From NCBI GenBank assembly GCA_018060845.1, contig JAGOVG010000004.1:12118-76117 (forward strand): a stretch of 64,000 nucleotides of DNA, in the 5' to 3' direction. A model generated the notes under the pieces. That model did not search any database. It was given only the letters and a program-made list of their open reading frames with translations, and was not told where the DNA came from. Made by a program: the position numbers and the translations under genes. Positions 2,749-64,000 of the stretch are shown one piece after another; the stretch's first letter is position 1, and every line of letters starts with the position of its first letter. Origin of the DNA: Candidatus Woesebacteria bacterium. Its GTDB lineage: Bacteria; Patescibacteriota; Microgenomatia; UBA1400; UBA12108.

Positions 2749-3252
2749 ATGTCAGATCAAAATCCAATGCAAATCAAAGTTTTTATCGAGATCCCAGAAA
2801 ACTCTCGCGTAAAGTACGAGCGAGACGAAGAAACCGGCATGCTCATGGCCGATCGCATCCTTCACACCCCCATGAACTTTCCTTTTAACTACGGTTTTGT
2901 CTTGGGGAGCAAGGGTCAGGATGGTGACCCAACCGACATCGTCCTCTTAGCCTCCGAGCAGTTTGCACCAGGTGTTGGCATCAAAGCACAGCTAATTGGC
3001 ATGCTCGAAATGGAAGACGAAGAGGGGATAGATACCAAACTAATCGCAGTCCCAGTCAAAAAAGTAGACCCCTTGTTTGGCAACTGGATGGATATCACCG
3101 ATGTCCCAGAGCACACCAAGAATAAAATCAAACACTTCTTTGATCACTACAAAGATCTAGAACCCGGCAAATTTGTCAAAACCGGCAAATTCTTAAGCGC
3201 CAAAGAGGCAGCAGCTATATTAGAAGAGGATATGAAAAGAGGAGAAAACTAA
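2749..3252 (+). CDS. ppa: inorganic pyrophosphatase
   Basis: Family I PPase signature (KVFIEIPENSRVKYE…DGDPTDIVLL). AAGGAG RBS 6 nt upstream. Confidence 0.9.
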   Translation: MSDQNPMQIKVFIEIPENSRVKYERDEETGMLMADRILHTPMNFPFNYGFVLGSKGQDGDPTDIVLLASEQFAPGVGIKAQLIGMLEMEDEEGIDTKLIAVPVKKVDPLFGNWMDITDVPEHTKNKIKHFFDHYKDLEPGKFVKTGKFLSAKEAAAILEEDMKRGEN

Positions 3253-6006
3253 GTGTCCGACGATAAGCTACTCAAACCACTAGATCTATCCGACGAGACT
3301 ACCGAGTCTTCGTCAGAACTAAGTGATTCTGCGCCGAGCTCTGACGCACCAGAATCAGCAGTCGTCATGCCAACTGGCACCAACATGACTGTCAATCACA
3401 ATCAGGTCTGGGAGATCGAGAACACTCAGTTTGGCCGGATTGCTAAAGTCCCAATCGTTGAAGAGATGAAAAAGAGTTATCTCGATTACGCTATGAGCGT
3501 TATCGTCTCTCGTGCGCTACCTGACGTACGTGATGGCCTAAAACCGGTCCATCGCCGTATCCTCTATGGCATGAAGGAGCTCTCGCTCCTCCCACCAGCC
3601 AAATACAAAAAATGTGCTCGTATCGTCGGTGAAGTCCTAGGTAAATATCACCCTCATGGCGATACAGCCGTCTACGACGCACTCGCTCGTTTGGCTCAAG
3701 ACTTCTCTATGCGCTACATGCTAGTCGATGGCCAGGGTAACTTTGGTAGTGTCGATGGTGACTCACCAGCCGCCATGCGTTATACCGAAGCTAGACTTGC
3801 CAAAATAACTGGCGAGATCCTCTTTGACCTCGATCGCGACACAGTCGATTGGGTCGACAACTTTGATGGCACTTTCCAGGAGCCGACAGTCATGCCAGCC
3901 CGCCTCCCCAACCTCCTCCTCATGGGTAGCGATGGTATTGCGGTCGGTATGGCTACCAAGATCCCGACTCACAACCTAAGCGAAGTTGTAGCCGCAATTA
4001 ATACATTAATCAAAAAAGGCGACGTCAAAACCGCCGACAACTCTCATCTCAACGATGATACTATCTCAACCGCACCATACCAGAGCCTGATTGGCGACTT
4101 TAGTTCCGAAGCTAATATTGATGATTTGATGGAGAGCGTCCAGGGTCCCGATTTCCCAACTGGTGGTGTCATCTATGATGCCGAGGCCATCCGCGAAGTC
4201 TACGCAACCGGTAAGGGTCGGGTAGTAACCCGCGCCGTTGCTGAGATCGAAGAGACCAAGAGTGGCCGTTTCCAGATCATAGTTACCGAGATCCCATACC
4301 AGGTCAACAAATCCAAACTAATCCAAAAAATAGCTGATCTCGTAAGAGACAAAAAGATTGAGGGGATTAGTGACCTCCGTGACGAATCAGATCGCGAGGG
4401 TATGCGTATAGTGATCGAGCTCAAAAAAGCCAGTAAGCCTAAGAGCGTCTTAAACAATCTCTACAAACACACCGAACTCCAAAACAGCTTCCCCGCCAAT
4501 ATGGTGGCGCTCGACGAGACCGGTACTCCCCACCTCATGAACCTCAAAACCATCCTCACTCACTATGTTAAGCATCGCCAGGGCGTGATAGTTCGTCGTT
4601 CCCAGTTTGAACTCAAAGAGAGTCGGGCACGCATCCACATCTTAGAGGGATACCTCAAAGCCCTAGATCATCTAGACGAAGTCATCAAAACTATTAGATC
4701 AAGTAAAGACACTGATGAAGCCAAAAAGAACCTGATCGAGAAGTTTGGCTTTAGCGAAATCCAAGCCGTTGCTATCCTCGATATGCAGTTGCGTAAGCTG
4801 AGCGCACTCGAGCGTCAAAAGATCCAGGATGAATACGACGAGCTAATGAAGAGGATCACGTTCCTCCTCGAACTACTGCGTAACCCACAGGCAGTCCTCA
4901 AAACAATTCTAGCCGAACTCAAAGAACTCGAGAGTATCTACGGCGATCCACGTAAAACCAAGGTCATCAAAGGCAAGCTAGGCGAATTTAGCGAAGAAGA
5001 TCTAGTCGCCAAAGAAGACAATCTGATCGCCATAACTCGTGACGGCTACGTCAAGCGTATGCCACTCTCGACCTATCGCACCCAGAGGCGCGGCGGCAAA
5101 GGCGTTGTCGGCATGACTACCAAAGAAGAGGATGAGATCCTACACATGAGTGTGGGTAACACTCACGATGTCGTCATGTTCTTTACAGATCTAGGCAAAG
5201 TCTACGCCAGTCGCGTATTCGAACTACCAGAGGGTAGTCGAACCGCCAAAGGTCAAGCTATTATCAACTTAATTAGCATTACTTCAGACGAAAAAGTCCT
5301 GGCGCTCTTAACAGTTCCCAAAGAAGTGCTAGAGAGTGATAAGAACTTTATTTTCTGTGCGACCAAAAATGGGCTAGTTAAAAAGACTCCGATTGTCGAA
5401 TATAGCAATATCAGAAACTCCGGCAAGATCGGGATCGTCCTCAAAGACAACGACAGTCTCATCAAAGCCCAGGTCACAGACGGTAGTAATTACATCCTCT
5501 TGGTCACCCACCAGGGCAAATCAATCAAATTTAAAGAAGCCGATGTCAACCCAACCGGTCGTGCCAGTCAGGGTGTCAAAGGGATCTCACTCAAAAAAGA
5601 TGATGCCGTGATCGCCGCCTCAACATTTGAGATAAATCCTGTGAGGCCTGATGACAAGAGGAAGAAGTTCTTCCGCGAGATCTTGGTTGTCACCGAACAC
5701 GGGTTAGGCAAAAGGACCGACGTCGAGGAATATCCAGAGCAGGGTAGGGGAGGCCAAGGGGTCAAGGTAGCTGAGCTATCAGACAAAACCGGCAACCTTG
5801 CAGCAGCCAGATTGATCACCGAAGCCGATGAGCAAGCAGTGATCACCACCAAAGCCGCCCAGGTCATCAAGCTACCAATCAAGAACATCAAAGTACTTGG
5901 TCGCTCAACTCAGGGTGTCATCCTCATGCGACCCGCCAAAGGCGATGTTGTAACCTCCGTCACCACACTGCAAGAGTCCGAAGACGAAGAAGACTCGTTA
6001 GCCTGA
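3253..6006 (+). CDS. gyrA: DNA gyrase subunit A
   Basis: GTG start abutting the ppa stop. Conserved [23 protein letters not shown], active-site region and C-terminal beta-pinwheel repeats; 917 aa. Confidence 0.95.
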
Positions 6007-13353: not shown

Positions 13354-13402
13354 TATCTAATAATATTCAATAACATTAGCTAATATCTGATAATATTAGA
13401 CT

Positions 13403-15621: not shown

Positions 15622-16225
15622 CCTCAGGGTAAAACGTAGATGCTACCAGAGGTAGAGGCCGTAGAATGGCTTTTAAACTGTCAACACCAGGTCAAATGGG
15701 TAAGCATATGTCCAAAATACGTATATTTTTACGGGTAAGCTTTGGAAAGCAGGAAAACAGGAAGTTAGCATAGGTGGGGGACGAAATAACAATCTAAAAC
15801 GGCAGCAAATCAATTAATTGGTAATTAGTGAATGATAACTGGTAATTAATCTAATAAACTCAGCCCCCTCTCGATTCTTGACTAAGTGTCATAAAAGATA
15901 TATTGTGCGACGCTCAATAGATGACTCCTCCACAGGAGATGCACATCAATAAAAGGGGTTTGAGGCTTCACCTACGATATTCACTACTATCACACAATTA
16001 ACCCTCTATTCACATTGCATCAGTCCGTTAAAGAATTTATCTGCGCTATCCACTATAAAGTCGTCCTGCTCTACTAGCGCTCTAGCACCAGATCTGATAT
16101 CTGGACCCGTAGCTTACCCTACCAGGCTATACCCCTGGGAATGTACGTAACTATATCAAACCATACAAAGTCGTTCACATATCCTACTCGCAAGGATCGG
16201 ATACTTTTTATCCACATTCGTGAAA

Positions 16226-16290
16226 ATAATTATAGGATATTGTGAAAAGACCTATAATTATTATAGGACATCCCTAAATATTATAGGACT
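16226..16290. repeat. cluster of ATTATAGGA direct/inverted repeats with TATAAT boxes inside a long non-coding region
   Basis: AATTATAGGA (16228-37), near-palindrome CCTATAATTATTATAGGA (16251-68) and ATTATAGGA (16280-88). Confidence 0.6.
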
Positions 16291-16328
16291 CTCCCCTGCC
16301 CTCTGCACATCAAGTTACGCAGTAACAT

Positions 16329-16364
16329 GAGAAATGCCTCCAGATACGTAGTAATCTGGGAGAC
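16329..16364. repeat. hairpin repeat GAGAAATGCCTCCAGA-N10-TCTGGGAGAC, copy 1
   Basis: Near-identical to 27462..27497. The stem arms are conserved and the 10-nt loop differs. Confidence 0.6.
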
Positions 16365-16416
16365 GGCACATCAATCCCGCCTTGGCGGGAATGAGAAATA
16401 CATCAAGTTCCGATTT

Positions 16417-23071: not shown

Positions 23072-23081
23072 TCGACTTTAA

Positions 23082-23108
23082 ACTTTATACTTTATACTTT
23101 ATACTTTT
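23082..23108. repeat. heptanucleotide tandem repeat (ACTTTAT)x~4 in a divergent promoter region
   Basis: aACTTTATACTTTATACTTTATACTTTt lies between the lgt start (23071) and the 23112 ORF start. Confidence 0.8.
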
Positions 23109-23111
23109 CCC

Positions 23112-25655: not shown

Positions 25656-25693
25656 GAAATAATTTTACCTCTTTAACAAAACAATAAAACTAG

Positions 25694-25721
25694 GTACTAA
25701 GTACTAAGTACTAGGTACTAG
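25694..25721. repeat. heptanucleotide tandem repeat (GTACTAA/GTACTAG)x4
   Basis: GTACTAAGTACTAAGTACTAGGTACTAG lies between the dnaB start and the stop of the upstream gene. Confidence 0.8.
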
Positions 25722-27461: not shown

Positions 27462-27497
27462 GAGAAATGCCTCCAGACGCGCAGCAGTCTGGGAGAC
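27462..27497. repeat. hairpin repeat GAGAAATGCCTCCAGA-N10-TCTGGGAGAC, copy 2
   Basis: Six nt downstream of the preceding stop. Arms identical to copy 1 (16329..16364), loop diverged. Confidence 0.6.
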
Positions 27498-28827: not shown

Positions 28828-28861
28828 ATTTGAGAATTTGAGAATTTATGATTTGAGAATT
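28828..28861. repeat. solo copy of the dispersed repeat ATTTGAGAATTTGAGAATTTATGATTTGAGAATT
   Basis: Three TTTGAGAATT units directly after the hisS stop. The same family flanks the four-helix-bundle gene at 56466..56840. Confidence 0.7.
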
Positions 28862-28875
28862 ACATGCCATAATAC

Positions 28876-30581: not shown

Positions 30582-30632
30582 ATATCCTACCCCACACTAG
30601 GTTCTTTATACTCGGTACTTTATACTAAATTC

Positions 30633-36351: not shown

Positions 36352-36393
36352 TTTATGTCCTTACTTTAGACTTTATAAACTTTTAACTTTAAA

Positions 36394-49155: not shown

Positions 49156-50616
49156 TTAGATTTTGGTAGCTCTAGTTTTGCCACCCTTATCCTCCAGCTT
49201 ATAACCTAGCTTCTCGATATCCATTCGTATTTTGTCTGCTTGTGCGTAGTCTTTTTTGACTCTTGCCTCGTCTCGCTGTGAGATCAGTTCTTTGATCTGC
49301 TCTGGCGTCTCTGTATTTAGCTCAAAATTTGCATATCCTAGATTTAGTCCTAGCACCTTATCCCACTCCCGCATTAGATCTAATTTGTCATAGTTTGGTA
49401 TATTACTCTTGACCATGTCCCAGAGTGTGGCAATAGCGCGTGGTAAGTCGAGATCGTTCTCGAGCGCCGCTTTAAAGCTATTCTGATATTCTTCGATCTG
49501 TGCCGCTTTTTCACTTGATAACTCTGTACGGTTAGCCTGATCGCCCGCAAAGCTCTGGTAGTACCCCCTAAGCTTTCCTAGTGCAACCGACGCGCCTTTG
49601 AGCGACTCCCACGTAAAGTTAAGCTGACGGCGGTAATGTCCAGTCATATAAAAGTAACGTAGCGATAATGGGTCATATCCGCGACTCTCAATATCTGAGA
49701 CCGTATAGGCATTCCCCAGGCTCTTACCCATTCTCCCGCCATCAACGAGTAGAAATGCTCCATGCACCCATGTCGTAACGAATGGCTTTTTGCCAGTCGC
49801 TCCCTCGGCCTGTGCAATCTCGTTGGGGTGGTGGGTACTGCGCAAGTCCTCTCCACCCACGTGGATATCAAATTGGTCACCCAGGTATTTCGTACTCATC
49901 GCCGAACACTCTATGTGCCAGCCAGGGAATCCAGTCCCCCAGGGCGACTCCCACTCCATGTCGCGCTTTCCACTAGCCTGTCCTGAGCCTGCCGAAGGAT
50001 TAGGACTAAATTTCCAGAGAGCAAAATCACGTGGGTCTTTCTTTTCTTTGTTTGGCTCGAGCCGCGCCCCAAACTTGATTTGGTCTAGTGTCGATAACTC
50101 TCCATATTTATTGCCTGCTGCATCATAGGCTGCTACATCAAAATAAAGTCCGTCGGAGATGGTATAGACTAACCCCCGAGCCTGTAATGCCTCAACCATT
50201 TTGATCTGCTCTGGGATGTGTTCGGTAGCTAGGCAGACCACGCTCGGCCGCTTAATCCCGAGTCTCTGCATATGGTCAAAGAACTCTTTGGCATATGCCT
50301 CACTGATCTCCCATGCCGTCTTACCCTCTTTTTTGGCCGCTTTCTCGAGCCTGTCCTCACCTTGACTAGAGTCCCCTTCGTTATCACCCGTGAGGTGTCC
50401 TACGTCTGTTAAGTTCATCACATGCGTAACGTCATACCCTAGATACTCAAGCGATCGAGCTAGGATGTCAGACAGAGTATAAGTACGAAAGTTGCCAATG
50501 GTAGGCGTCGAGTACACAGTCGGTCCACAGGTATACATCCCGATCTTGCCGCTCTCTCTTGGTGTTACTTCTTCAACAGTCCGGCTTAGTGAGTTAAATA
50601 GCTTCATAAACCACAT
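49156..50616 (-). CDS. cysS: cysteine--tRNA ligase
   Basis: Class I HIGH region (CGPTVYSTPTIGN), zinc-binding Cys, and KMSKS-like KMGKSLGN. Probable true start is the second Met (about 50607). Confidence 0.9.
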   Translation of the reverse strand: MWFMKLFNSLSRTVEEVTPRESGKIGMYTCGPTVYSTPTIGNFRTYTLSDILARSLEYLGYDVTHVMNLTDVGHLTGDNEGDSSQGEDRLEKAAKKEGKTAWEISEAYAKEFFDHMQRLGIKRPSVVCLATEHIPEQIKMVEALQARGLVYTISDGLYFDVAAYDAAGNKYGELSTLDQIKFGARLEPNKEKKDPRDFALWKFSPNPSAGSGQASGKRDMEWESPWGTGFPGWHIECSAMSTKYLGDQFDIHVGGEDLRSTHHPNEIAQAEGATGKKPFVTTWVHGAFLLVDGGRMGKSLGNAYTVSDIESRGYDPLSLRYFYMTGHYRRQLNFTWESLKGASVALGKLRGYYQSFAGDQANRTELSSEKAAQIEEYQNSFKAALENDLDLPRAIATLWDMVKSNIPNYDKLDLMREWDKVLGLNLGYANFELNTETPEQIKELISQRDEARVKKDYAQADKIRMDIEKLGYKLEDKGGKTRATKI

Positions 50617-50620
50617 GATA

Positions 50621-50675
50621 CCAGAAAACTCCGAAAACTCTGATTATCCAGAATTTCGGAAAACCTGATAATATC
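50621..50675. repeat. upstream flank of four-helix-bundle cassette 1: (GAAAACTC)x2-CTGATTATCCAG…
   Basis: Inverted relative to 51053..51081. Homologous to the 63460..63520 flank of copy 3. Confidence 0.65.
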
Positions 50676-50680
50676 AAACT

Positions 50681-51046
50681 ATGATTAGAGATGTCACAAA
50701 TTTAGACGTCTACCAACTCTCATTTGAAGCGCTAGAAATTTTATATAAACTTGTGATCAAAATCCCGCATTCCGAGAGAGATACCATAGATCAATTGAAA
50801 CGTGCAAGCGAATCTGTGCCCGCAAATATTGCCGAAGGCTTTGCCAAAAGATCATCAGAAAAAGAATTTAAACGTTTTCTTAAAATAGCAATCGGATCTA
50901 GTGATGAGGTAGTGACTCACCTTAGAATGGTCTGCATTACAGTCCCAAATTTACAACCACAAGCAATACAAGTTGCAGACACTTTCACAGTCCTATCCAA
51001 AAGATTAAACAAATTGCATTCAGTCTGGCGAACAGGTAATTTCTAA
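50681..51046 (+). CDS. four-helix-bundle protein, 23S rRNA intervening-sequence protein family (PF05635/TIGR02436-like)
   Basis: …SVPANIAEGFAKRSSEKEFKRFLKIAIGSSDEVVTHLRM… is the family signature. One of three paralogs in the window. Confidence 0.75.
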   Translation: MIRDVTNLDVYQLSFEALEILYKLVIKIPHSERDTIDQLKRASESVPANIAEGFAKRSSEKEFKRFLKIAIGSSDEVVTHLRMVCITVPNLQPQAIQVADTFTVLSKRLNKLHSVWRTGNF

Positions 51047-51052
51047 GTCATT

Positions 51053-51081
51053 AGAGTTTTCCGAGTATTCCGAGTCTTCCG
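51053..51081. repeat. downstream flank of cassette 1: GAGTTTTCCGAGTATTCCGAGTCTTCCGA
   Basis: Reverse complement of the upstream GAAAACTC tandem units. Confidence 0.65.
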
Positions 51082-51084
51082 ACC

Positions 51085-51588
51085 TCACCCCGCCCCCCAT
51101 GCCTTATTTTCTGCACTCGACCCCTGCGTCGCCGCCTTAAGGCCAATATCTTCCTGTTTTTTCTTTTGAAACTCAAACTCTTTTTTCTGCTCCTCTTTCT
51201 TCTCTTCGACCTGCTTACGCTGTTGTTCTTTTTGCTCAAACTCCATCCGGGCGCGTTGCATGCCGTCCTCTACACTCGAGTCTAACCCCCACTCACGGAC
51301 TAGCTGCTTACGCAACATCTCGATCTCCATCTGGTCTTTTTGACCAGACAGACCACTGTATTTGGTAAAGTCGTCTTGAGTCTTGAACCCTGCCTTAGCG
51401 ATGTCTTGCATCGGGTCATCATTCTGCCGCGCCCCTACCGTAGCACCTTGTGCGGAGGGGGGGTTACCTTGCTCTAGCTGCACCCCGACGGCGTCTTTGA
51501 CTATCTCCACAGGCTCAGACACCACTGATTTAACTACATGCTTAGCGAGCCCTGCCAGGTTTTGTCCTACTTGTTTCCAAACACTCAT
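51085..51588 (-). CDS. hypothetical charged coiled-coil protein
   Basis: 167 aa with a Lys/Glu-rich C-terminal half. Confidence 0.4.
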   Translation of the reverse strand: MSVWKQVGQNLAGLAKHVVKSVVSEPVEIVKDAVGVQLEQGNPPSAQGATVGARQNDDPMQDIAKAGFKTQDDFTKYSGLSGQKDQMEIEMLRKQLVREWGLDSSVEDGMQRARMEFEQKEQQRKQVEEKKEEQKKEFEFQKKKQEDIGLKAATQGSSAENKAWGAG

Positions 51589-54011: not shown

Positions 54012-54080
54012 AAGACAATTATAGTTTAGCTGAACTATCGAGCGTAAGGGTGCAGGAGTATTTTGTAGTTAAAAAATTTA

Positions 54081-54110
54081 TCGCAAGGCGGGTAGCCTGA
54101 GATCGAGGTC
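54081..54110. repeat. 30-nt conserved intergenic motif TCGCAAGGCGGGTAGCCTGAGATCGAGGTC (copy A)
   Basis: About 22/30 identical to 55969..55998. Both lie in intergenic regions of the dnaX-ybaB-recR operon. Confidence 0.5.
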
Positions 54111-54176
54111 GCTGCGACACCTGTCGCAGACAGACCGCTTTTTTACACAAAGTACTCCGAACCCGTAAAGCGAGTA

Positions 54177-55909: not shown

Positions 55910-55968
55910 GTAACTACTTTATCACGACCGAGCGTAGTGTACAGTCGTATCTCACAACAAAAAAATAT

Positions 55969-55998
55969 TCGCAGAGCGGGTAGCTCGAGACATAGATC
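55969..55998. repeat. 30-nt conserved intergenic motif TCGCAGAGCGGGTAGCTCGAGACATAGATC (copy B)
   Basis: See 54081..54110. Followed at 56009..56031 by AAATTTATGAT, which is shared with the TTTGAGAATT repeat family. Confidence 0.5.
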
Positions 55999-56067
55999 AA
56001 AATTTCAGCAGAAATTTATGATCGGTTTTTTGTGTGATGGTACAACGAAACACTAAAAGCGAGCGCT

Positions 56068-56460
56068 CTATTCGTGATGAAAACCTAACAAATGCATCAG
56101 CCCATGCTCTGCCAAAAACTGGATCTGGTCATCTAGCTTGATCTGCTTCTCTAGTGCCTCCTCTACCGCCACCGGATAACACACCACTATATCGCCGAGT
56201 CGAAGCATCCCATCTGGTGATGCCACAAAAGGCCTATCATCGGTCTGATCGTTTAAAGGAAAAGAGAGGACGTCCGTAGGACCTGGCAGCTGCATATAAT
56301 CCATGTGCAACTGGGTCATCTTGCGTGCGCCGACCACCTGCACCTCAACCACCACATTATCCGTTAGTCTATGTCGGGCGAGTACTTTGGTTAAATGTGC
56401 GCGTAATGCGGCTCGGTCAAACGGAAATTTAGCATCAGCGATGATATCAATATTAATCAT
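56068..56460 (-). CDS. ybeY: endoribonuclease YbeY
   Basis: Metal-binding HGLMHLLGFHHE motif. The ORF-track TTG start at 56469 is probably an over-extension; ATG at 56460. Confidence 0.8.
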   Translation of the reverse strand: MINIDIIADAKFPFDRAALRAHLTKVLARHRLTDNVVVEVQVVGARKMTQLHMDYMQLPGPTDVLSFPLNDQTDDRPFVASPDGMLRLGDIVVCYPVAVEEALEKQIKLDDQIQFLAEHGLMHLLGFHHE

Positions 56461-56489
56461 AAATCTCAAATTCTCAAATTCTCAAATTT
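56461..56489. repeat. AAATCTCAAATTCTCAAATTCTCAAATTT: inverted copy of the TTTGAGAATT repeat, downstream flank of cassette 2
   Basis: Three tandem AAATTCTCA units. The last 8 codons and stop of the four-helix-bundle gene are encoded by this repeat. Confidence 0.7.
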
Positions 56490-56840
56490 AGAAGATCCAA
56501 ATTTAATTTTCTTAATAATGGCACTAAGTATTAATGTTATTTCTCTGACTTCCTTTCTCAGGTCTGAATTATCTATACCTAAGACCTCCTCAGATATTCT
56601 CAGCCAATAACTAGTTTCTTTAGCTTCCTTTTTTGCTATAGAAAATCTATGGATAAATTCAGCTTTAGATTCAGACCCGTCTGCTTCTTGAGCATTAGCG
56701 CCTATAGATGTAGCAGATCTAATTAGTTGTTTAGCAATAACACTAGCCTCGAGAGTTTTAGGAAATTTTCGAATATATAGTATTGTGTTTACTGCAAATT
56801 TATAGATTCTCTCGTATATATCACGCTTGCTCTGATCCAT
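56466..56840 (-). CDS. four-helix-bundle protein, 23S rRNA IVS protein family (divergent paralog)
   Basis: …QLIRSATSIGANAQEADGSESKAEFIHRFSIAKKEAKETSYWLRI… matches the TIGR02436-type signature. Confidence 0.75.
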   Translation of the reverse strand: MDQSKRDIYERIYKFAVNTILYIRKFPKTLEASVIAKQLIRSATSIGANAQEADGSESKAEFIHRFSIAKKEAKETSYWLRISEEVLGIDNSDLRKEVREITLILSAIIKKIKFGSSKFENLRI

Positions 56841-56850
56841 AATTTGTGAA

Positions 56851-56886
56851 GATTTGAGAATTTATGATTTAAGATTGAAGAATTTC
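56851..56886. repeat. GATTTGAGAATTTATGATTTAAGATTGAAGAATTTC: upstream flank of cassette 2
   Basis: Inverted with respect to 56461..56489. Near-identical to the solo copy at 28828..28861. Confidence 0.7.
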
Positions 56887-57306
56887 TTTTACTATCTTCG
56901 AGATCACTCCCCCATCCGCCTTACCTTGCATTAGTGGCAGCGCGATCTTCATGGCTGCACCAATATTACCGGCAGTTACTAGCTGGTCTTTTATCTTCGA
57001 TAGCTCTTCACGGACCTGATCTTCGGTAAGCATGGTTGGTAGATACTTGGCAATTAGCTCGAGCTCAAATTCTTCACCCTTTGCTAGCTCTTCTCTCCCA
57101 CCACTTCTGTATGCGAGCGCTGACTCTCGCCTCTTCTTGGCCTCTTTGGACAATATGGCTACAACCCCTACCTCATCGAGGTCTGGGTTGTCTACCATTG
57201 CGTACTTGATTGCAGAGATAAGCATACGGATAGCCGACAGTCGCACCGAATCCTGGGCTTTCATGCTAGCCTTCATGTCTTCGGTTAACTGCGACAGTAT
57301 CGTCAT
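56869..57306 (-). CDS. GatB/YqeY-domain protein
   Basis: 145 aa. The …RLSAIRMLISAIKYAMV… family pattern. Downstream of rpsU as commonly seen. Confidence 0.8.
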   Translation of the reverse strand: MTILSQLTEDMKASMKAQDSVRLSAIRMLISAIKYAMVDNPDLDEVGVVAILSKEAKKRRESALAYRSGGREELAKGEEFELELIAKYLPTMLTEDQVREELSKIKDQLVTAGNIGAAMKIALPLMQGKADGGVISKIVKEILQS

Positions 57307-61443: not shown

Positions 61444-61995
61444 ATGAATAAAACAGAAATTGTTTTTCAATCACAAGCCGAGTTAATAAATTTCGTCGGA
61501 GGAGAGAACCTTCTAATTTCAAGAATGCTATCAGATCATCCAGCTATATCGAGCGAACCAAGAATATCATTAACCAGCACCTTAGTTACTCTGTTAAGCG
61601 AAGACTTGATCAGAGCTGACGAGCAATGTGCACTAGAACTATCGATTCAAAAATTCCGTGAGCTATCTTTAGTCAATATCCCATCTAGAGCAGAAGACAT
61701 TCACCAATATTTATATCCAGATAGTGAGACATCATTACAAGACACTAAAACTTTAATAGAATTATTATCAAAAGCAGCATTAATCACATATAAGGATAAG
61801 GGATATCATCTTGATACAGGTATTAGACGTCTAGCGCTAGTTGAGTATGAGTTAACCCAACCAGAACAATATGCTCATAGTCACATAAGCCTACTAATCA
61901 CAGCAATAGATTTACAAACTAGATATCCGGAAGCCAGTAGTTGGTATGATAATATGCTACCCGATATTGAGATTAAACAATTTACTAATAGGTAA
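61444..61995 (+). CDS. hypothetical protein
   Basis: 183-aa ORF, 16 nt after the previous stop (operon). Confidence 0.4.
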   Translation: MNKTEIVFQSQAELINFVGGENLLISRMLSDHPAISSEPRISLTSTLVTLLSEDLIRADEQCALELSIQKFRELSLVNIPSRAEDIHQYLYPDSETSLQDTKTLIELLSKAALITYKDKGYHLDTGIRRLALVEYELTQPEQYAHSHISLLITAIDLQTRYPEASSWYDNMLPDIEIKQFTNR

Positions 61996-63025
61996 CAATA
62001 TCCACTAATACCTTCGCTAGTTTATCCGAATCATGCCTCACCATACTCCTAACTAGGTTGTCCCCTTTCTCTTTCCTTACCTTCCCCTTTGCCAACAACT
62101 TCTCTCTTATCACTTCAAAATTTATTTGAGAATTTGACCTGCCTGCGCAGGCAGGGAATTTATGTTTTGTGATTTCCGACGACACTAAGTCGTCGGTGAC
62201 CCACTCCGATCCCTCTTTCTGGTATGCCTTGGCTACTTTGGGGTCTATCGTCCTATCTGTGTTCACAATTACATGGGTCAGTCTTGTTAGAGGTAAATAT
62301 TTACCTAGGTCATTTAGGTAGTCAGAGGCCTTATATCCATAGCTCTCACCACTCTTCGTCATTACATTCATCACAAATGCCAGCTTGGCGTAGCTCTTAT
62401 TAATCGCCTCGACTACTCCCGAGATCACCAAGTTGGCAACAGTGTTGGTATACAGGTCACCTGGCCCGAGTACTATCAGATCAGCTTCCTGTATGGCTTT
62501 TTTTGCCTCAGGATCTACCTCTACTTGTGGTATGGTCCTAAAGCTAGTTATCCGCTCTCTGCCACTAGTCCCCTTACCCACATCTATCCCATGCTCTCCT
62601 AGCACTTCTGTGCCATCTGCATAGGTTGCCAAGAGTGACACAGTCTCATACGACACAGGCAGGATCTTGCCTCTCACGTCAAGTAGCTCGGCAGTTTGCT
62701 TAATCGCATCGCGCTGGCTACCTGTAATATCCGAAACAGCTGCCATAAAAAGGTTGCCAAAAGTCATTCCCGAGATCCCAACTCCCTGATAGTATCTATA
62801 CGAAAATAATTTACGTAGCAGTCCTTCGTTCTCCGATAGTGCCACCATACACTGCCTAACACCTGATGTTGGTAACAGTCCAAACTCATCCCTGAGCACC
62901 TTATTGCTGCCTCCATCATCCGCCATGGTAACAACCGCCGAGATATCTATGTCTGGATACTTCTTTAGTCCACGTAAAACTGTATATGTCCCAGTCCCAC
63001 CACCGATAACCACAATCTTTTTCAT
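61985..63025 (-). CDS. yvcK: gluconeogenesis factor YvcK (UPF0052 / CofD-like)
   Basis: MKKIVVIGGGTG…VVTMADDGGS…LPTSGVRQCMVAL is diagnostic. The C-terminal about 25 aa are encoded partly by a repeat/palindrome. Confidence 0.75.
   Translation of the reverse strand: MKKIVVIGGGTGTYTVLRGLKKYPDIDISAVVTMADDGGSNKVLRDEFGLLPTSGVRQCMVALSENEGLLRKLFSYRYYQGVGISGMTFGNLFMAAVSDITGSQRDAIKQTAELLDVRGKILPVSYETVSLLATYADGTEVLGEHGIDVGKGTSGRERITSFRTIPQVEVDPEAKKAIQEADLIVLGPGDLYTNTVANLVISGVVEAINKSYAKLAFVMNVMTKSGESYGYKASDYLNDLGKYLPLTRLTHVIVNTDRTIDPKVAKAYQKEGSEWVTDDLVSSEITKHKFPACAGRSNSQINFEVIREKLLAKGKVRKEKGDNLVRSMVRHDSDKLAKVLVDIVTY
62124..62164. repeat. ATTTGAGAATTTGA + perfect 18-nt palindrome CCTGCCTGCGCAGGCAGG + GAATTTATG inside the yvcK 3' coding end
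   Basis: Member of the TTTGAGAATT repeat family. The palindrome (62138..62155) is perfectly self-complementary. Confidence 0.7.
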
Positions 63026-63029
63026 ATTT

Positions 63030-63100
63030 ATCAGACAATCAGAATACTCAGATAATCGGTTGGTCAGATAGTCAGATTATCAGAATCTATCAGATCTCCA
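63030..63100. repeat. downstream flank of cassette 3: run of seven TCAGA(N) units incl. CAGATTATCAG
   Basis: ATCAGACAATCAGAATACTCAGATAATCGG…TCAGATAGTCAGATTATCAGAATCTATCAGATC. Its reverse complement resembles the cassette 1 downstream flank with C/T changes. Confidence 0.6.
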
Positions 63101-63445
63101 TATACTATGTAATTTGTTTATCCTTTTTGACAAAAGCTTATACAGATTTGCCAATTCTACTATTTCAGACTGTAATCGTGTCACTGCATAATATACCGTT
63201 CGAAAGTGGGTTACAACTTCATCACTCGACCCAATAGCTATCTTTAAAAATCGCTTAAATTCTTTTTCCGAAGATCTTTTAGCAAACCCTTCTGCAATAT
63301 TTGCAGATACTGATTTAGCAGCGCGCCTTAGCTGACTGATCGTATCCATCTCAGATTTTGGAAATTTCCGAAGCAAAGTATATAGTTTAGCTATTAGCTT
63401 TAATGATTCGTTATATACATCCAAGTCAGTGACATCTCGTATCAT
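63080..63445 (-). CDS. four-helix-bundle protein, 23S rRNA IVS protein family (close paralog of 50681..51046)
   Basis: …SVSANIAEGFAKRSSEKEFKRFLKIAIGSSDEVVTHFRT… Nucleotide sequence is diverged from copy 1 but the protein is conserved. Confidence 0.75.
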   Translation of the reverse strand: MIRDVTDLDVYNESLKLIAKLYTLLRKFPKSEMDTISQLRRAAKSVSANIAEGFAKRSSEKEFKRFLKIAIGSSDEVVTHFRTVYYAVTRLQSEIVELANLYKLLSKRINKLHSIWRSDRF

Positions 63446-63459
63446 AAAAACATCGTACC

Positions 63460-63520
63460 ACGTCCGATATTCAGGTTGCCTGATAATCTGGTTTTCCGAG
63501 TTTTCCGGTTGTCTGATTTC
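63460..63520. repeat. upstream flank of cassette 3: CTGATAATCTG-GTTTTCCGAGTTTTCCGG-TTGTCTGATTTC
   Basis: Its reverse complement GGAAAACTCGGAAAACCAGATTATCAG matches the cassette 1 upstream flank GAAAACTCCGAAAACTCTGATTATCCAG. Confidence 0.65.
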
Positions 63521-64000
63521 TAGCTAAAGAATATATCTTTAATCGTAATTACGATCAGCAAGAGGATGAGTAGTCCCATCCCGACAGCATTAACATACTG
63601 CTCTACTTTAGCCACCCTCTTCCTCCCCACTACTTTCTCTAGTCCTACCATGAGTAGTCTCCCGCCATCGAGCGCTGGGAATGGCAATAGGTTAAATATC
63701 GCTAGGTTTAGTGAGATTATGCCGACAAATCGTAGTGTTACATCCCATCCCATCTCAACCGCCTGCTGCCCTACCTTGACCACCTGCACTGGTCCACCCA
63801 CATTCTTAATTAGCTCAGACGGATGGCTAAATATCCGCAAAAACTCACGGCTCCACCCGATTGCTTCTTTAAATCCTTCTACTGTGCCTACGATCGGAGC
63901 CTGGTACCAGGGTAATTTTTTGTATTGAAAAATCGGGACAGTAGACACAGCTACACCTAGTGCTCCCTCACCCTCTGGCGGGTTCTCGCGTGGGATTACA
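63520..64000 (-). CDS. rseP: RseP/site-2 protease (M50) C-terminal part, 5'-truncated by the window edge
   Basis: …NLLPFPALDGGRLL… is an M50 C-terminal motif, followed by a final TM helix. The frame stays open to position 64000. Confidence 0.6.
   Translation of the reverse strand, partial: VIPRENPPEGEGALGVAVSTVPIFQYKKLPWYQAPIVGTVEGFKEAIGWSREFLRIFSHPSELIKNVGGPVQVVKVGQQAVEMGWDVTLRFVGIISLNLAIFNLLPFPALDGGRLLMVGLEKVVGRKRVAKVEQYVNAVGMGLLILLLIVITIKDIFFS

Follow-up and report, generated by a model that had tools for sequence, protein, structure and literature searches.

It is some 30 years since intervening sequences (IVSs) of rRNA genes with a conserved S23p ORF became known, and we know of no explanation to date for the origin of the IVSs or the function of this ORF. 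In Leptospira, Coxiella burnetii, Brucella and Haemophilus, the ORF-bearing 23S IVSs encode proteins of the family PF05635, and the ORF is enclosed by terminal inverted repeats which form a stem of 20-30 bp. The IVS hairpins in 23S helices 25/45 of Salmonella and Yersinia are likewise stem-loops of inverted sequence, but they carry no ORF. Cyanobacterial genomes contain dispersed direct arrays of short repeats, the STRR heptamers, whose function is undescribed. It has been reported that RNase III excises the Coxiella IVS, whose stem has three to four tandem GACAGAT heptamers upstream of the S23p ORF (PMC4990558). Insertions in the 16S and 23S rRNA genes of CPR bacteria were also reported to encode 23S_rRNA_IVP (10.1101/2024.02.27.582315), and 70-75 paired convergent arrays of the heptamer GGGAATC were described in Xanthomonas (PMC4692102). 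No description of an ORF between inverted arrays outside rRNA was found in the literature.

The DNA analysed here, a stretch of 64,000 nucleotides from a Candidatus Woesebacteria contig (the window), contains exactly three ORFs of this family. They matched PF05635 with E values of 1e-20 to 3e-23 and 72-83 bits (cut-off 33.8), and also TIGR02436 with 73-87 bits (cut-off 24). A sequence-only reading had placed three such genes at these positions, next to cysS, ybeY and yvcK. The profile searches agreed with the genes, and the annotated orthologous loci agreed with the neighbours, which include yqeY beside ybeY and, for yvcK, the name CofD. None of the copies is in an rRNA gene, as Rfam detected only one tRNA in the window and all three copies are flanked by protein-coding genes. 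The features of the three loci, and of one related array elsewhere in the window, are as follows.

50622..50665, + strand: copy 1 upstream arm, degenerate tandem units of 8-9 nt (CAGAAAAC TCCGAAAAC TCTGATTAT CCAGAATT TCGGAAAAC), with an inverted match to 51038-51070
50666..50674, + strand: copy 1 extended -10-like box TGATAATAT, 6 nt before the ATG
50681..51046, + strand: copy 1 ORF, 121 aa, PF05635/TIGR02436 four-helix-bundle protein
51051..51084, + strand: copy 1 downstream arm, GAGTTTTCC GAGTATTCC GAGTCTTCC, inverse of the upstream units
56841..56888, - strand: copy 2 upstream arm, TCTCAAAT-type units in gene orientation
56466..56840, - strand: copy 2 ORF, 124 aa, divergent PF05635 subfamily
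56455..56490, - strand: copy 2 downstream arm, three units of ATTTGAGA, holding the copy 2 stop codon and the ybeY start codon
63461..63519, - strand: copy 3 upstream arm, CAGACAAC CGGAAAAC TCGGAAAAC CAGATTAT CAGGCAAC CTGAATAT in gene orientation
63452..63460, - strand: copy 3 extended -10-like box TGGTACGAT, 6 nt before the ATG
63080..63445, - strand: copy 3 ORF, 121 aa, PF05635
63026..63079, - strand: copy 3 downstream arm, about 6.8 TCTGA-type units of 8 nt
28828..28862, + strand: solo array ATTTGAGAATTTGAGAATTTATGATTTGAGAATT, the copy 2 arm unit, without a four-helix-bundle gene or an inverted partner

Copy 1 is antisense to both cysS (49156-50616, - strand) and a gene of 167 aa (51085-51588, - strand), and this orientation is shared by its orthologues and by an extra cassette in the relative L164. 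Copies 2 and 3 run in the same direction as both of their neighbours, those of copy 3 being an M50 peptidase fragment (63520-63948) and yvcK (61985-63025), whose start codon lies 5 nt beyond the end of the downstream arm. In non-rRNA metagenome loci, the upstream gene was co-oriented in 23/29. Copy 2 is tightly packed between its neighbours. Its upstream arm overlaps the final ~20 nt of yqeY (56869-57306), and its final ~8 codons are encoded by the downstream array, a tail that is missing from its homologues of 116 aa at <=73% identity. The true start of ybeY, set by YbeY homologues which are all 130 aa long, is the ATG complementary to 56458-56460 within the downstream arm, and the copy 2 stop codon is 5 nt ahead of it. 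The coding sequences were estimated beforehand to be about 80% identical, which proved too high: copies 1 and 3 share 65% of nucleotides and 64% of amino acids, and the protein of copy 2 is only 21% identical to that of copy 1.

Each gene was indeed bracketed by mutually reverse-complementary arrays of 7-9 nt units, as had been noticed from the letters alone. TRF detected period 9 (3.2 copies) at 51054-51082 downstream of copy 1, period 8 (3.1 copies, 100% matches) at 56464-56488 downstream of copy 2, period 7 (4.6 copies) at 56849-56881 upstream of copy 2, and period 8 (6.8 copies) at 63030-63084 downstream of copy 3. The arms pair imperfectly, with complementarity of 76% over 33 nt for copy 1, 83% over 30 nt for copy 2 and 80-84% over 19-20 nt for copy 3. 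The local inverted-alignment scores were 13.5, 19.5 and 13.5 for copies 1-3; the 95th percentile of the control genes was 9.0 and that of mismatched flank pairs 12.4. The unit GAAAACTCNGA / TCNGAGTTTTC is common to copies 1 and 3, which the motif search of the window corroborated: 7/9 matches at <=1 mismatch and 3/3 exact matches fall in the arms of these two copies. Copy 2 has a different unit, ATTTGAGA / TCTCAAAT. At least six further spacers of the window, none with a PF05635 gene, also contain similar tandem arrays. These solo arrays sit just upstream of -10-like boxes abutting start codons, and the one at 28828-28862 forms only a weak hairpin (z -2.0).

The architecture was then compared across the family using 76 non-redundant PF05635 loci from many lineages and GC contents, with 239 genes and mismatched flank pairs as controls. 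A composition-robust local inverted-alignment score was used as the metric; RNAduplex on 90-nt flanks separated cases from controls poorly because GC-rich controls also gave very negative energies. The median score was 14.5 for the 76 loci and 6.5 for both the control genes and the mismatched pairs (Mann-Whitney p ~1e-27), and 78% of the loci exceeded the 95th percentile of the controls, while direct, non-inverted flank similarity stayed at background level. The flanks were periodic, mainly with period 7. The purine fraction was 0.60 upstream and 0.43 downstream, so that the downstream side is pyrimidine-rich, and on the sense strand there was a modest excess of G.U over A.C (182 vs 128, p=0.003). 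The unit sequence differs between lineages. The sharing of arm 8-mers rises with protein identity (Spearman rho 0.26, p 7e-50), and 11-mers from a locus's own arms recur elsewhere in the same locus at 14.1 per 10 kb, compared with 1.44 for those from the arms of other loci. The inverted-array architecture is a hallmark of the whole PF05635 family. For example, PF05635 loci with the same kind of arms are present on finished plasmids of Nostoc, which dominated the matches of the plasmid search; these genes are flanked by the heptamers CAGGAGT x8 / ACTCCTG and GGGAACA / TGTTCCC x6. The STRR heptamers may belong to the same class of sequence as the cassette arms.

The same package was found inside rRNA genes. 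Among metagenomic homologues, those nearest to copy 1 (57-69% identity) have the same GAAAACTC-type arms as copy 1, and they include one in a 16S gene (L084) and two in 23S genes (L088 and L094). PF05635 cassettes are located at 23S helix 45 in L142, L147, L163, L140 and L094:617, elsewhere in 23S in L088 and L094:4001, and in 16S in L084, L097 and L103, the last two and those at helix 45 being more distant members of the family. All nine rRNA-resident cassettes whose orientation was seen are in the sense direction (9/9). The 23S gene of Azospirillum lipoferum 4B also holds a PF05635 ORF with arms, which is unannotated there. Since the same arms and ORF occur in rRNA and non-rRNA homologues, the ORF plus its arms is one unit in both settings. 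The window copies are similar to the ORF-bearing 23S IVSs in their protein family, in the inverted repeats enclosing the ORF and, as in Coxiella, in the tandem heptamer-type units upstream of it (GACAGAT x3-4 there; PMC4990558). They differ in lying in spacers between protein genes, with one of the three antisense to its neighbours, and in having ORFs with dN/dS of ~0.07, whereas the Coxiella ORF was reported as decaying and untranslated.

Folding of the flanks supported pairing of the arms. The arm-arm duplexes had predicted energies of -24.5, -25.9 and -38 kcal/mol (z -4.1 to -5.8 against shuffles), and in predicted folds of the full cassette RNAs each ORF is closed by a terminal stem of 19-23 bp. 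The window cassettes therefore share the predicted long terminal stem of an RNase-III-excised IVS, but not its location in rRNA. The closing stem was present in both the MFE and the centroid structures for copies 2 and 3, and in the centroid for copy 1, whose MFE uses the arm-arm stem partly. The z values of the whole-cassette folds were -1.7, -2.95 and -3.6 for copies 1-3, that of copy 1 being not significantly better than shuffles. RNAalifold gave the same closing stem for six cassettes of the copy-1/copy-3 type, with 16 pairs, only 3 of them compensatory. No RNase III (rnc) signature was found in the window.

The extended -10-like boxes of copies 1 and 3 are putative promoters of the cassettes' own, which, judging from their position, would give leaderless mRNAs. 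Of the AT-rich PF05635 loci, 23/29 have a TAnnnT box 5-10 nt ahead of the start codon, compared with 31/76 other genes of the window. The two-hexamer promoter scan reported no + strand promoter for copy 1 because a -35 box is absent. Terminator prediction gave no intrinsic terminator on the coding strand for the copy 1 downstream arm, and the copy 3 region lacked predicted terminators altogether. An mRNA started at a promoter beside the ATG would lack the upstream arm, and the stem would therefore form only in read-through RNA.

The orthologous sites were also compared in relatives. Synteny was obtained via YbeY and PF05635 homologues, as a DnaX search gave only distant relatives (<=47% identity). 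In close relatives, with 85-100% identity for most neighbouring proteins, both filled and empty states were found at all three sites, which answers the comparison of empty sites proposed with the sequence-only reading. The copy 1 site is filled in the window, L164, L165 and L170 and empty in L171/L172 and L173. The copy 2 site, between yqeY and ybeY, is occupied in L180-L186 as it is in the window. In L171-L175, yqeY and ybeY overlap by ATGA without a spacer, and in L164 the site holds a hairpin of 81 nt that has no ORF and is built from similar units (dG -24.1, z -3.2), resembling the ORF-less IVS and inverted-array class. The copy 3 site is filled in the window and L171/L172 and empty in L173 (20 nt) and L175 (78 nt). 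The extra cassette of L164 lies between recR and ybaB. The cassette has been gained or lost, or exchanged between alleles, among these close relatives. The copies are old and diverged, each having same-site orthologues at 66-94% identity, and no near-identical copies at different sites were found. Filled and empty junctions showed no target-site duplication, the host spacer being replaced and not split, and the gene tables of the orthologous loci contained no transposase or RT beside the cassettes. A tblastn search of the window's neighbour proteins against 80 metagenome loci gave no common synteny except for a ybeY-adjacent case in L112. The suggestion that these are discrete, IVS-like cassettes able to form an RNase-III-type stem is thus supported by the folds, the rRNA homologues, the filled and empty sites and the Coxiella parallel. 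For the accompanying term "copy-competent", the basis is the patchy distribution and the multiple contexts, and not an observed transposition.

The ORFs are under strong purifying selection, with dN/dS of 0.08 for copy 1 and 0.07 for copy 3. Orthologues of copy 1 at its own site (L164, L165 and L170) have 76-84% protein identity, compared with 67-73% for the flanking cysS and 165-aa genes, and the copy 3 orthologue in L171/L172 has 79% amino acid identity. The arms are conserved at least as strongly as the ORFs. For example, the copy 2 arms of the window and L184 are 83-88% identical (83% for the upstream arm), while the third codon positions of ybeY are 38% identical. Purifying selection, conservation of the arms and the tracking of subfamily by arm sequence together indicate that the ORF and its arms are inherited as one functional unit.

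The motif GxxRxxxSxxxNxxE has been reported for the protein family (PMC3936711), and RxxxSxxxNxxE is present in all three translations (R-ASE-S-VPA-N-IA-E in copy 1, R-SAT-S-IGA-N-AQ-E in copy 2 and R-AAK-S-VSA-N-IA-E in copy 3). An AF2 model of the copy 1 monomer (pLDDT 90.9) has helices at 2-25, 30-55, 60-87 and 89-115, an up-down four-helix bundle like 2GSC and 2RLD. These two were the best Foldseek matches, with TM 0.82-0.86 and rmsd 1.6 for 2GSC, which also matched in phmmer (E 5e-12) and comes from Xanthomonas; both are solved as pentamers (chains A-E). Next came Avd of the diversity-generating retroelements, which has the same fold (TM 0.74-0.80 to the Avd chains of 8UB7, with 4DWL also matched) at a sequence identity of 10-15%. 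Avd binds nucleic acid within an RT complex (PMC10053308). From its homology to Avd, our best guess is that the protein may be a pentameric, Avd-like nucleic-acid-binding ring acting on its own repeat arms or on the cassette RNA. The cassettes differ from diversity-generating retroelements in having no adjoining RT or template/variable repeats, their neighbours being housekeeping genes. Readings as a defence system or a phage protein were dropped, as the PADLOC and PHROGs matches were marginal and uninformative.

These results are probably best explained by the three loci being self-insulating cassettes of the IVS type, each a PF05635 ORF between inverted arrays of 7-9 nt units, residing in spacers between protein genes. 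Likewise, the element is likely to be of the same type as the ORF-bearing 16S/23S rRNA intervening sequences, here placed in the spacers of housekeeping genes that run in one direction. In a longer RNA that includes the spacer, whichever strand is transcribed, the arms would pair and a stem of ~20-30 bp would loop out the ORF. Judging from Coxiella, Leptospira and Salmonella, this stem may be an RNase III substrate, by which the cassette RNA would be cut out of the host transcript or insulated from it. Such cutting or insulation is proposed to make the insertion tolerable both in rRNA and in operons. The copy-1/copy-3 subfamily would use its own extended -10 box abutting the ATG to produce a leaderless mRNA. 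Copy 2 appears to be tied into the operon by translational chaining, given that its stop codon precedes the ybeY AUG by 5 nt and this AUG is itself inside the stem.

It is also conceivable, though we consider it unlikely, that the arms act as DNA, with the protein as their cognate factor, in the manner of a REP/RAYT system or a transposon, the arrays being the ends of a mobile element or binding sites of a PF05635 pentamer, and the solo arrays its products or targets. The arm sequence is conserved beyond the needs of pairing and follows the protein subfamily, and both observations are no less compatible with a sequence-specific protein-repeat or DNA-level role than with a generic RNase III stem; the covariation of arm and protein would, however, be equally expected from simple co-inheritance. 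The roughly tenfold excess of own-arm 11-mers in the same locus, the solo array of copy 2 units, the filled and empty alleles of relatives and the Avd-like fold, Avd being a nucleic-acid binder (PMC10053308), all point in the same direction, as does the presence of PF05635 genes in lineages rich in heptamer arrays (Nostoc, and Xanthomonas with 2GSC and inverted GGGAATC arrays; PMC4692102). On the other hand, the protein is a helical bundle of 120 aa in which no nuclease or recombinase motif is recognisable, the cassettes adjoin neither a transposase nor an RT gene, and target-site duplications and recent identical copies are absent. The sense-oriented residence in rRNA (9/9) and the documented excision by RNase III point instead to a role at the RNA level. 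REP/RAYT systems (REPtrons) likewise consist of a gene flanked by an inverted short repeat that is also dispersed in intergenic regions, but there the RAYT gene encodes an HUH/Y1 transposase and each REP is a single palindrome, whereas the cassettes have tandem arrays and a helical bundle without a known catalytic motif, so the likeness is one of analogy only. With DNA transposons and MITEs the cassettes share the inverted arms, without target-site duplication or a nearby transposase. The Xanthomonas arrays are similarly inverted sequence in transcribed spacers, but they have no ORF, and a link of these or of the Nostoc arrays to PF05635 was not drawn in their description (PMC4692102). The reading as integron cassettes was rejected, since neither intI nor a cassette array nor a single 3' attC is present. 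More doubtful, and put forward as speculation, is a two-part system in which the PF05635 ring would recognise its own 7-9 nt arrays, maybe with one unit per subunit, and maintain, spread or exploit arrays genome-wide; rRNA IVSs, ORF-less IVS hairpins, STRR heptamers and the Xanthomonas GGGAATC arrays would then be products of one family that is functionally REP/RAYT-like.

The arms could alternatively be ordinary expression signals of a stable resident gene without any cassette behaviour, with a promoter/UP element or operator upstream and a terminator or mRNA-stabilising hairpin downstream. The position of the solo arrays just before -10-like boxes at start codons, the same-site orthologues which indicate vertical inheritance in some relatives, and the low dN/dS are in line with this. 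We hold it to be very unlikely, as it leaves unexplained the locus-specific reverse complementarity (14.5 for own pairs and 6.5 for mismatched ones), the same package inside rRNA genes and the clean empty sites of close relatives, including the overlapping yqeY/ybeY, and coding-strand terminators were not predicted for copies 1 and 3. Coincidence, in which slippage-generated tandem repeats of AT-rich spacers, such as the arrays in at least six other spacers, happen to flank three genes, is effectively refuted by the inverted arrays on both sides of all three, by the 78% of 76 loci across unrelated lineages (5% of controls by construction) and by arm conservation where synonymous sites are saturated.

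The reading as self-insulating IVS-type cassettes has consequences for annotation, where the arrays may be taken for CRISPR-like or other simple repeats and an ORF within rRNA goes unannotated, as happened with the Azospirillum 23S gene. Copies in Nostoc and Xanthomonas, among them NPUN_RS33770 of Nostoc punctiforme, HUN01_RS02400 of N. edaphicum and XCC0516 of Xanthomonas campestris, which are cultivable, would be test systems for operon insulation by RNase III, for the target of the Avd-like pentamer and for the origin of heptamer arrays. If this reading is true, the IVS is not specific to rRNA: because the architecture is universal in the family, the ORF is strongly selected and filled and empty alleles coexist in close CPR relatives, rRNA would be one of the sites taken up by a general self-insulating cassette that fits into any transcribed spacer.

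The three loci of the window, a stretch of 44.5% G+C from the CPR bacterium Candidatus Woesebacteria (Microgenomates), are IVS-type cassettes, akin to the intervening sequences of rRNA but situated outside rRNA. The sequence-only reading placed three PF05635-family genes here, and all of them scored well over the curated cut-offs of both PF05635 and TIGR02436. Short-period arrays of 7-9 nt units, called arms, were found on both sides of each ORF:

Copy 1 (near cysS): ORF 50681-51046, plus strand; upstream arm (gene orientation) CAGAAAAC/TCCGAAAAC/TCTGATTAT/CCAGAATT/TCGGAAAAC; downstream arm GAGTTTTCC/GAGTATTCC/GAGTCTTCC
Copy 2 (near ybeY): ORF 56466-56840, minus strand; upstream arm (gene orientation) TCTCAAAT-type; downstream arm ATTTGAGA x3
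Copy 3 (near yvcK): ORF 63080-63445, minus strand; upstream and downstream arms of a unit family common with copy 1

NCBI entries named 'four helix bundle protein [Candidatus Woesebacteria bacterium]' are 100% identical to the copy 1 and copy 2 proteins, and a profile made from copies 1-3 found no fourth PF05635 copy in the 64-kb window. The family motif RxxxSxxxNxxE is kept in all three copies. Their coding sequences had been taken to be about 80% identical at the nucleotide level, which is wrong because copies 1 and 3 share only 65% identity in DNA (64% in protein) and protein identity between copies 1 and 2 is only 21%. AlphaFold predicts copy 1 with confidence (pLDDT 90.9) as a bundle of four helices, whose top structural matches are pentameric XCC0516 (2GSC) and BT_0352 (2RLD), followed by Avd, the accessory protein of the DGR ribonucleoprotein (8UB7, 4DWL).

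The genes are indeed bracketed by short inverted repeats of tandem motifs: in each copy the upstream and downstream flanks are mutually inverted, and duplexes of the two arms beat shuffled sequences by 4-6 sd. In whole-cassette RNA folds a terminal stem of 19-23 bp encloses the ORF, the helix that had been envisaged; it was seen in both MFE and centroid structures for copies 2 and 3 and only in the centroid for copy 1. Within the window, the GAAAACTCNGA unit is essentially an arm unit of copies 1 and 3 alone, and the ATTTGAGAATTT unit is present in the arms of copy 2, in one solo array (28828-28862) and as one exact match at 62124, inside the yvcK gene range.

Since other short tandem arrays are present in window spacers without a PF05635 gene, the association was tested on independent data, a metagenome scan of 80 loci encoding homologues. 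In nearly all of them a tandem array rich in purines lies upstream and is matched downstream by its reverse complement, with a unit that varies by lineage (for example GGAAGCT, GAGGTTA, GGAAGTA, AGCAACC and ATCAGCTA). Flanks were scored by local alignment of the 90 nt upstream with the reverse-complemented 90 nt downstream. The median score was 14.5 for 76 non-redundant PF05635 genes and 6.5 for 239 other genes of those loci used as controls (p ~1e-27); scores above the control 95th percentile were reached by 78% of PF05635 genes. Medians of 6.5 were also obtained when an upstream flank was aligned with another locus's downstream flank and for direct (non-inverted) similarity. Copies 1, 2 and 3 scored 13.5, 19.5 and 13.5, respectively. 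An energy-based flank test did not discriminate PF05635 loci because of GC effects. The inverted-array architecture is no MAG artefact, because it was seen in finished sequences of cultured organisms: Nostoc punctiforme pNPUN01 (arms CAGGAGT x8 / ACTCCTG), N. edaphicum pNe_5 (GGGAACA / TGTTCCC x6) and Azospirillum lipoferum 4B plasmid AZO_p2 (L178, 12907-16257), where a 23S rRNA gene contains a PF05635 ORF flanked by heptamer arms of GAGGACG type. Both this gene and its ORF are unannotated, no feature being listed under the match.

According to Rfam, many homologue loci (L-numbers denote comparison loci or contigs) lie inside rRNA genes:

Classical 23S helix-45 site: L140, L142, L147, L163, L094:617
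Other 23S positions: L088, L094:4001
16S: L084, L097, L103

L084 (16S) and L088 and L094:4001 (23S) are among copy 1's closest metagenomic homologues (57-69% identity), and GAAAACTC-type arm units of copy 1 are also found in L084 and L088. The proposal of an IVS-like element is supported by these homologues with inverted arms, including copy 1-type units, inside 16S and 23S rRNA. The ORF and its arms travel together, because the shared arm 8-mer fraction climbs with protein identity over all locus pairs (Spearman rho 0.26, p 7e-50), from ~0.004 at <45% identity to 0.12-0.29 at >70%; one and the same unit of ORF and arms occurs within rRNA and outside it. It has been reported that RNase III excises the Coxiella IVS, whose 28-bp stem has 3-4 tandem GACAGAT heptamers, in strain-dependent number, directly upstream of the PF05635 ORF, S23p (PMC4990558). 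CPR rRNA insertions were also reported to encode 23S_rRNA_IVP (10.1101/2024.02.27.582315). No description of the inverted tandem-array architecture for non-rRNA copies was found in the open full-text literature that was searched. The nearest approaches were a report of 23S_rRNA_IVP genes scattered in cas loci (PMC3936711) and one of 70-75 paired convergent GGGAATC arrays in Xanthomonas, whose authors did not link the arrays to the PF05635 protein (PMC4692102). A CPR-like 23S rRNA gene (L094, metagenome contig Ga0172374_1001551) holds two different PF05635 cassettes, at 617-964 (helix-45 site) and 4001-4363 (3' half of 23S), together with two group I introns (2583-2799 and 2850-3115).

Syntenic contigs, found via homologues of copy 1, YbeY and copy 2, have the conserved order M50 peptidase - (copy 3) - yvcK ... 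S21 - yqeY - (copy 2) - ybeY - dnaX - ybaB - recR ... 165-aa gene - (copy 1, antisense) - cysS. Identity of the neighbouring proteins is mostly 85-100% in L171-L175, the nearest genomes, with lower values for dnaX (72-92%), cysS (79-87%) and yqeY (61-93%). Both filled and empty states exist among relatives at the cysS, ybeY and yvcK sites:

Copy 1 site, filled: window, L164, L165, L170 (orthologues 76-84%)
Copy 1 site, empty: L171/L172 (50-nt spacer); L173 (unrelated 73-aa ORF)
Copy 2 site, filled: window, L180/L181 (94%), L182/L183 (90%), L184-L186 (66%)
Copy 2 site, empty: L171-L175 (yqeY and ybeY overlap by ATGA)
Copy 3 site, filled: window, L171/L172 (79%)
Copy 3 site, empty: L173 (20-nt spacer); L175 (78-nt spacer)

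In L164 the copy 2 site holds an 81-nt hairpin made of related units but lacking an ORF (dG -24.1, z -3.2), and the recR-ybaB spacer contains an extra cassette that is absent from all others. At the junctions, cassette and arms take up all the room between the stop codon upstream and the start codon downstream; the host spacer is replaced, and no target-site duplication was found between filled and empty junctions. Two divergent yqeY alleles each occur with filled and with empty copy 2 sites. Allelic exchange between relatives by homologous recombination is a plausible route for the cassettes. The alleles (window 56869-57306 compared with L171, L173, L175, L180 and L182) show 61-62% vs 93-97% protein identity, and in genomes with differing alleles the adjacent S21 and ybeY are 93-100% identical, which suggests recombination or replacement right beside the copy 2 site. 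The copy 1 spacer is a hotspot of small-gene turnover, because L173 has its unrelated ORF upstream of cysS (L173:15329-15718) and L171:15201-15250 keeps only sequence resembling the 3' end of that ORF. On an unrelated GC-rich metagenome contig (L112:732-1516) a PF05635 gene lies directly downstream of a ybeY homologue, a single case and possibly a coincidence.

Orthologues have synonymous sites near saturation and dN/dS of 0.07-0.08. Copy 1 orthologues are 76-84% identical vs 67-73% for cysS and the 165-aa gene on either side. The arms of copy 1 match its ORF in conservation (72-79% vs 46-47% at third positions), and the copy 2 arms of the window and L184 are 83-88% identical, ybeY third positions only 38%. 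The closing stem was recovered by RNAalifold from six copy-1/copy-3-type cassettes; of its 16 pairs the three outermost show compensatory changes, and the core is invariant. Among stem mismatches of 63 loci, sense-strand G.U exceeded A.C (182 vs 128, p=0.003), which hints at pairing in sense RNA, but weakly, since the count may be skewed by the purine richness of the upstream arm.

What we infer about expression comes from sequence signals. A TAnnnT box 5-10 nt before the ATG precedes 23/29 PF05635 genes in AT-rich (CPR-type) loci, 12 of the 23 with TGn; among 76 other window genes, 31 have such a box at this distance from the start codon (11 of these with TGn), and a motif of Shine-Dalgarno type was seen in only 17. 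Many genes of this genome may be transcribed and translated without a leader. In copies 1 and 3 the boxes TGATAATAT and TGGTACGAT stand 6 nt ahead of the ATG, suggesting that each copy is transcribed from a promoter of its own into a leaderless mRNA. No TAnnnT-type box is present at copy 2, whose ORF reads on across the downstream arm to a stop codon 5 nt short of the ybeY AUG. Because this AUG sits within the copy 2 stem, copy 2 is probably chained to the operon at the level of translation. The genuine start codon of ybeY, the ATG at 56460, yields a protein of 130 aa, the length found in all homologues. Read-through transcripts with both arms should be common, because 23/29 non-rRNA metagenome cassettes have a co-oriented gene upstream. 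At empty copy 3 sites (L175:7403-7480, L173:7477-7496) an extended -10-like box, TGGTATTAT or TGTTACAAT, lies 7-8 nt before the yvcK ATG; at the filled site L171:6125-6202 a near-identical TGGTATTAT box precedes the cassette ORF and the downstream arm abuts yvcK. There the cassette may have usurped the position of the promoter, or brought a promoter with it.

Further elements were observed in the window. Two paralogous ~150-nt intergenic elements (54012-54176, recR-ybaB spacer; 55910-56067, ybeY-dnaX spacer) have the common blocks CTCGCTTTTA, CTACCCGC..TGCGA, TTTTTT and TACGCTCG, and a shared fold with a long closing stem and two inner hairpins (z -3.3 to -4.8 on either strand), the hairpins differing by compensatory changes; neither matched Rfam even at E<=1. 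In relatives the spacer upstream of dnaX has a matching length of ~160 nt. Solo short tandem arrays, including ACTTTAT x4.7, ACTAGGT/ACTAAGT x4.7 and ACTAGGTACTTTAT x2.3, lie in spacers without a PF05635 gene or an inverted partner (13354-13402, 23072-23111, 25689-25721, 30596-30627, 36352-36393); they may form or overlap leaderless-type promoters, because a -10-like box, TATACT or TAAAAT, closes several of them 6 nt ahead of the next ATG. The hairpin motif GAGAAATGCCTCCAGA-N8-TCTGGGAGAC occurs twice (16329-16360, 27462-27495), the first ending a 795-nt stretch (15622-16416) with no long ORF and no Rfam match.

It is well supported that ORF and inverted tandem-array arms behave as a single unit, discrete as the sequence-only reading proposed, which is conserved, has homologues in rRNA IVSs and is patchy among relatives. 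In a less likely, more novel reading the Avd-like pentamer would recognise its own repeat arrays; this draws on the strong sequence conservation of the arms, their link to protein subfamily and the dispersal of same-unit arrays (14.1 vs 1.44 per 10 kb). Judging from this anatomy and from experiments on rRNA IVSs of other bacteria, the arms would pair in read-through RNA and RNase III would cut the paired arms, insulating host transcripts.
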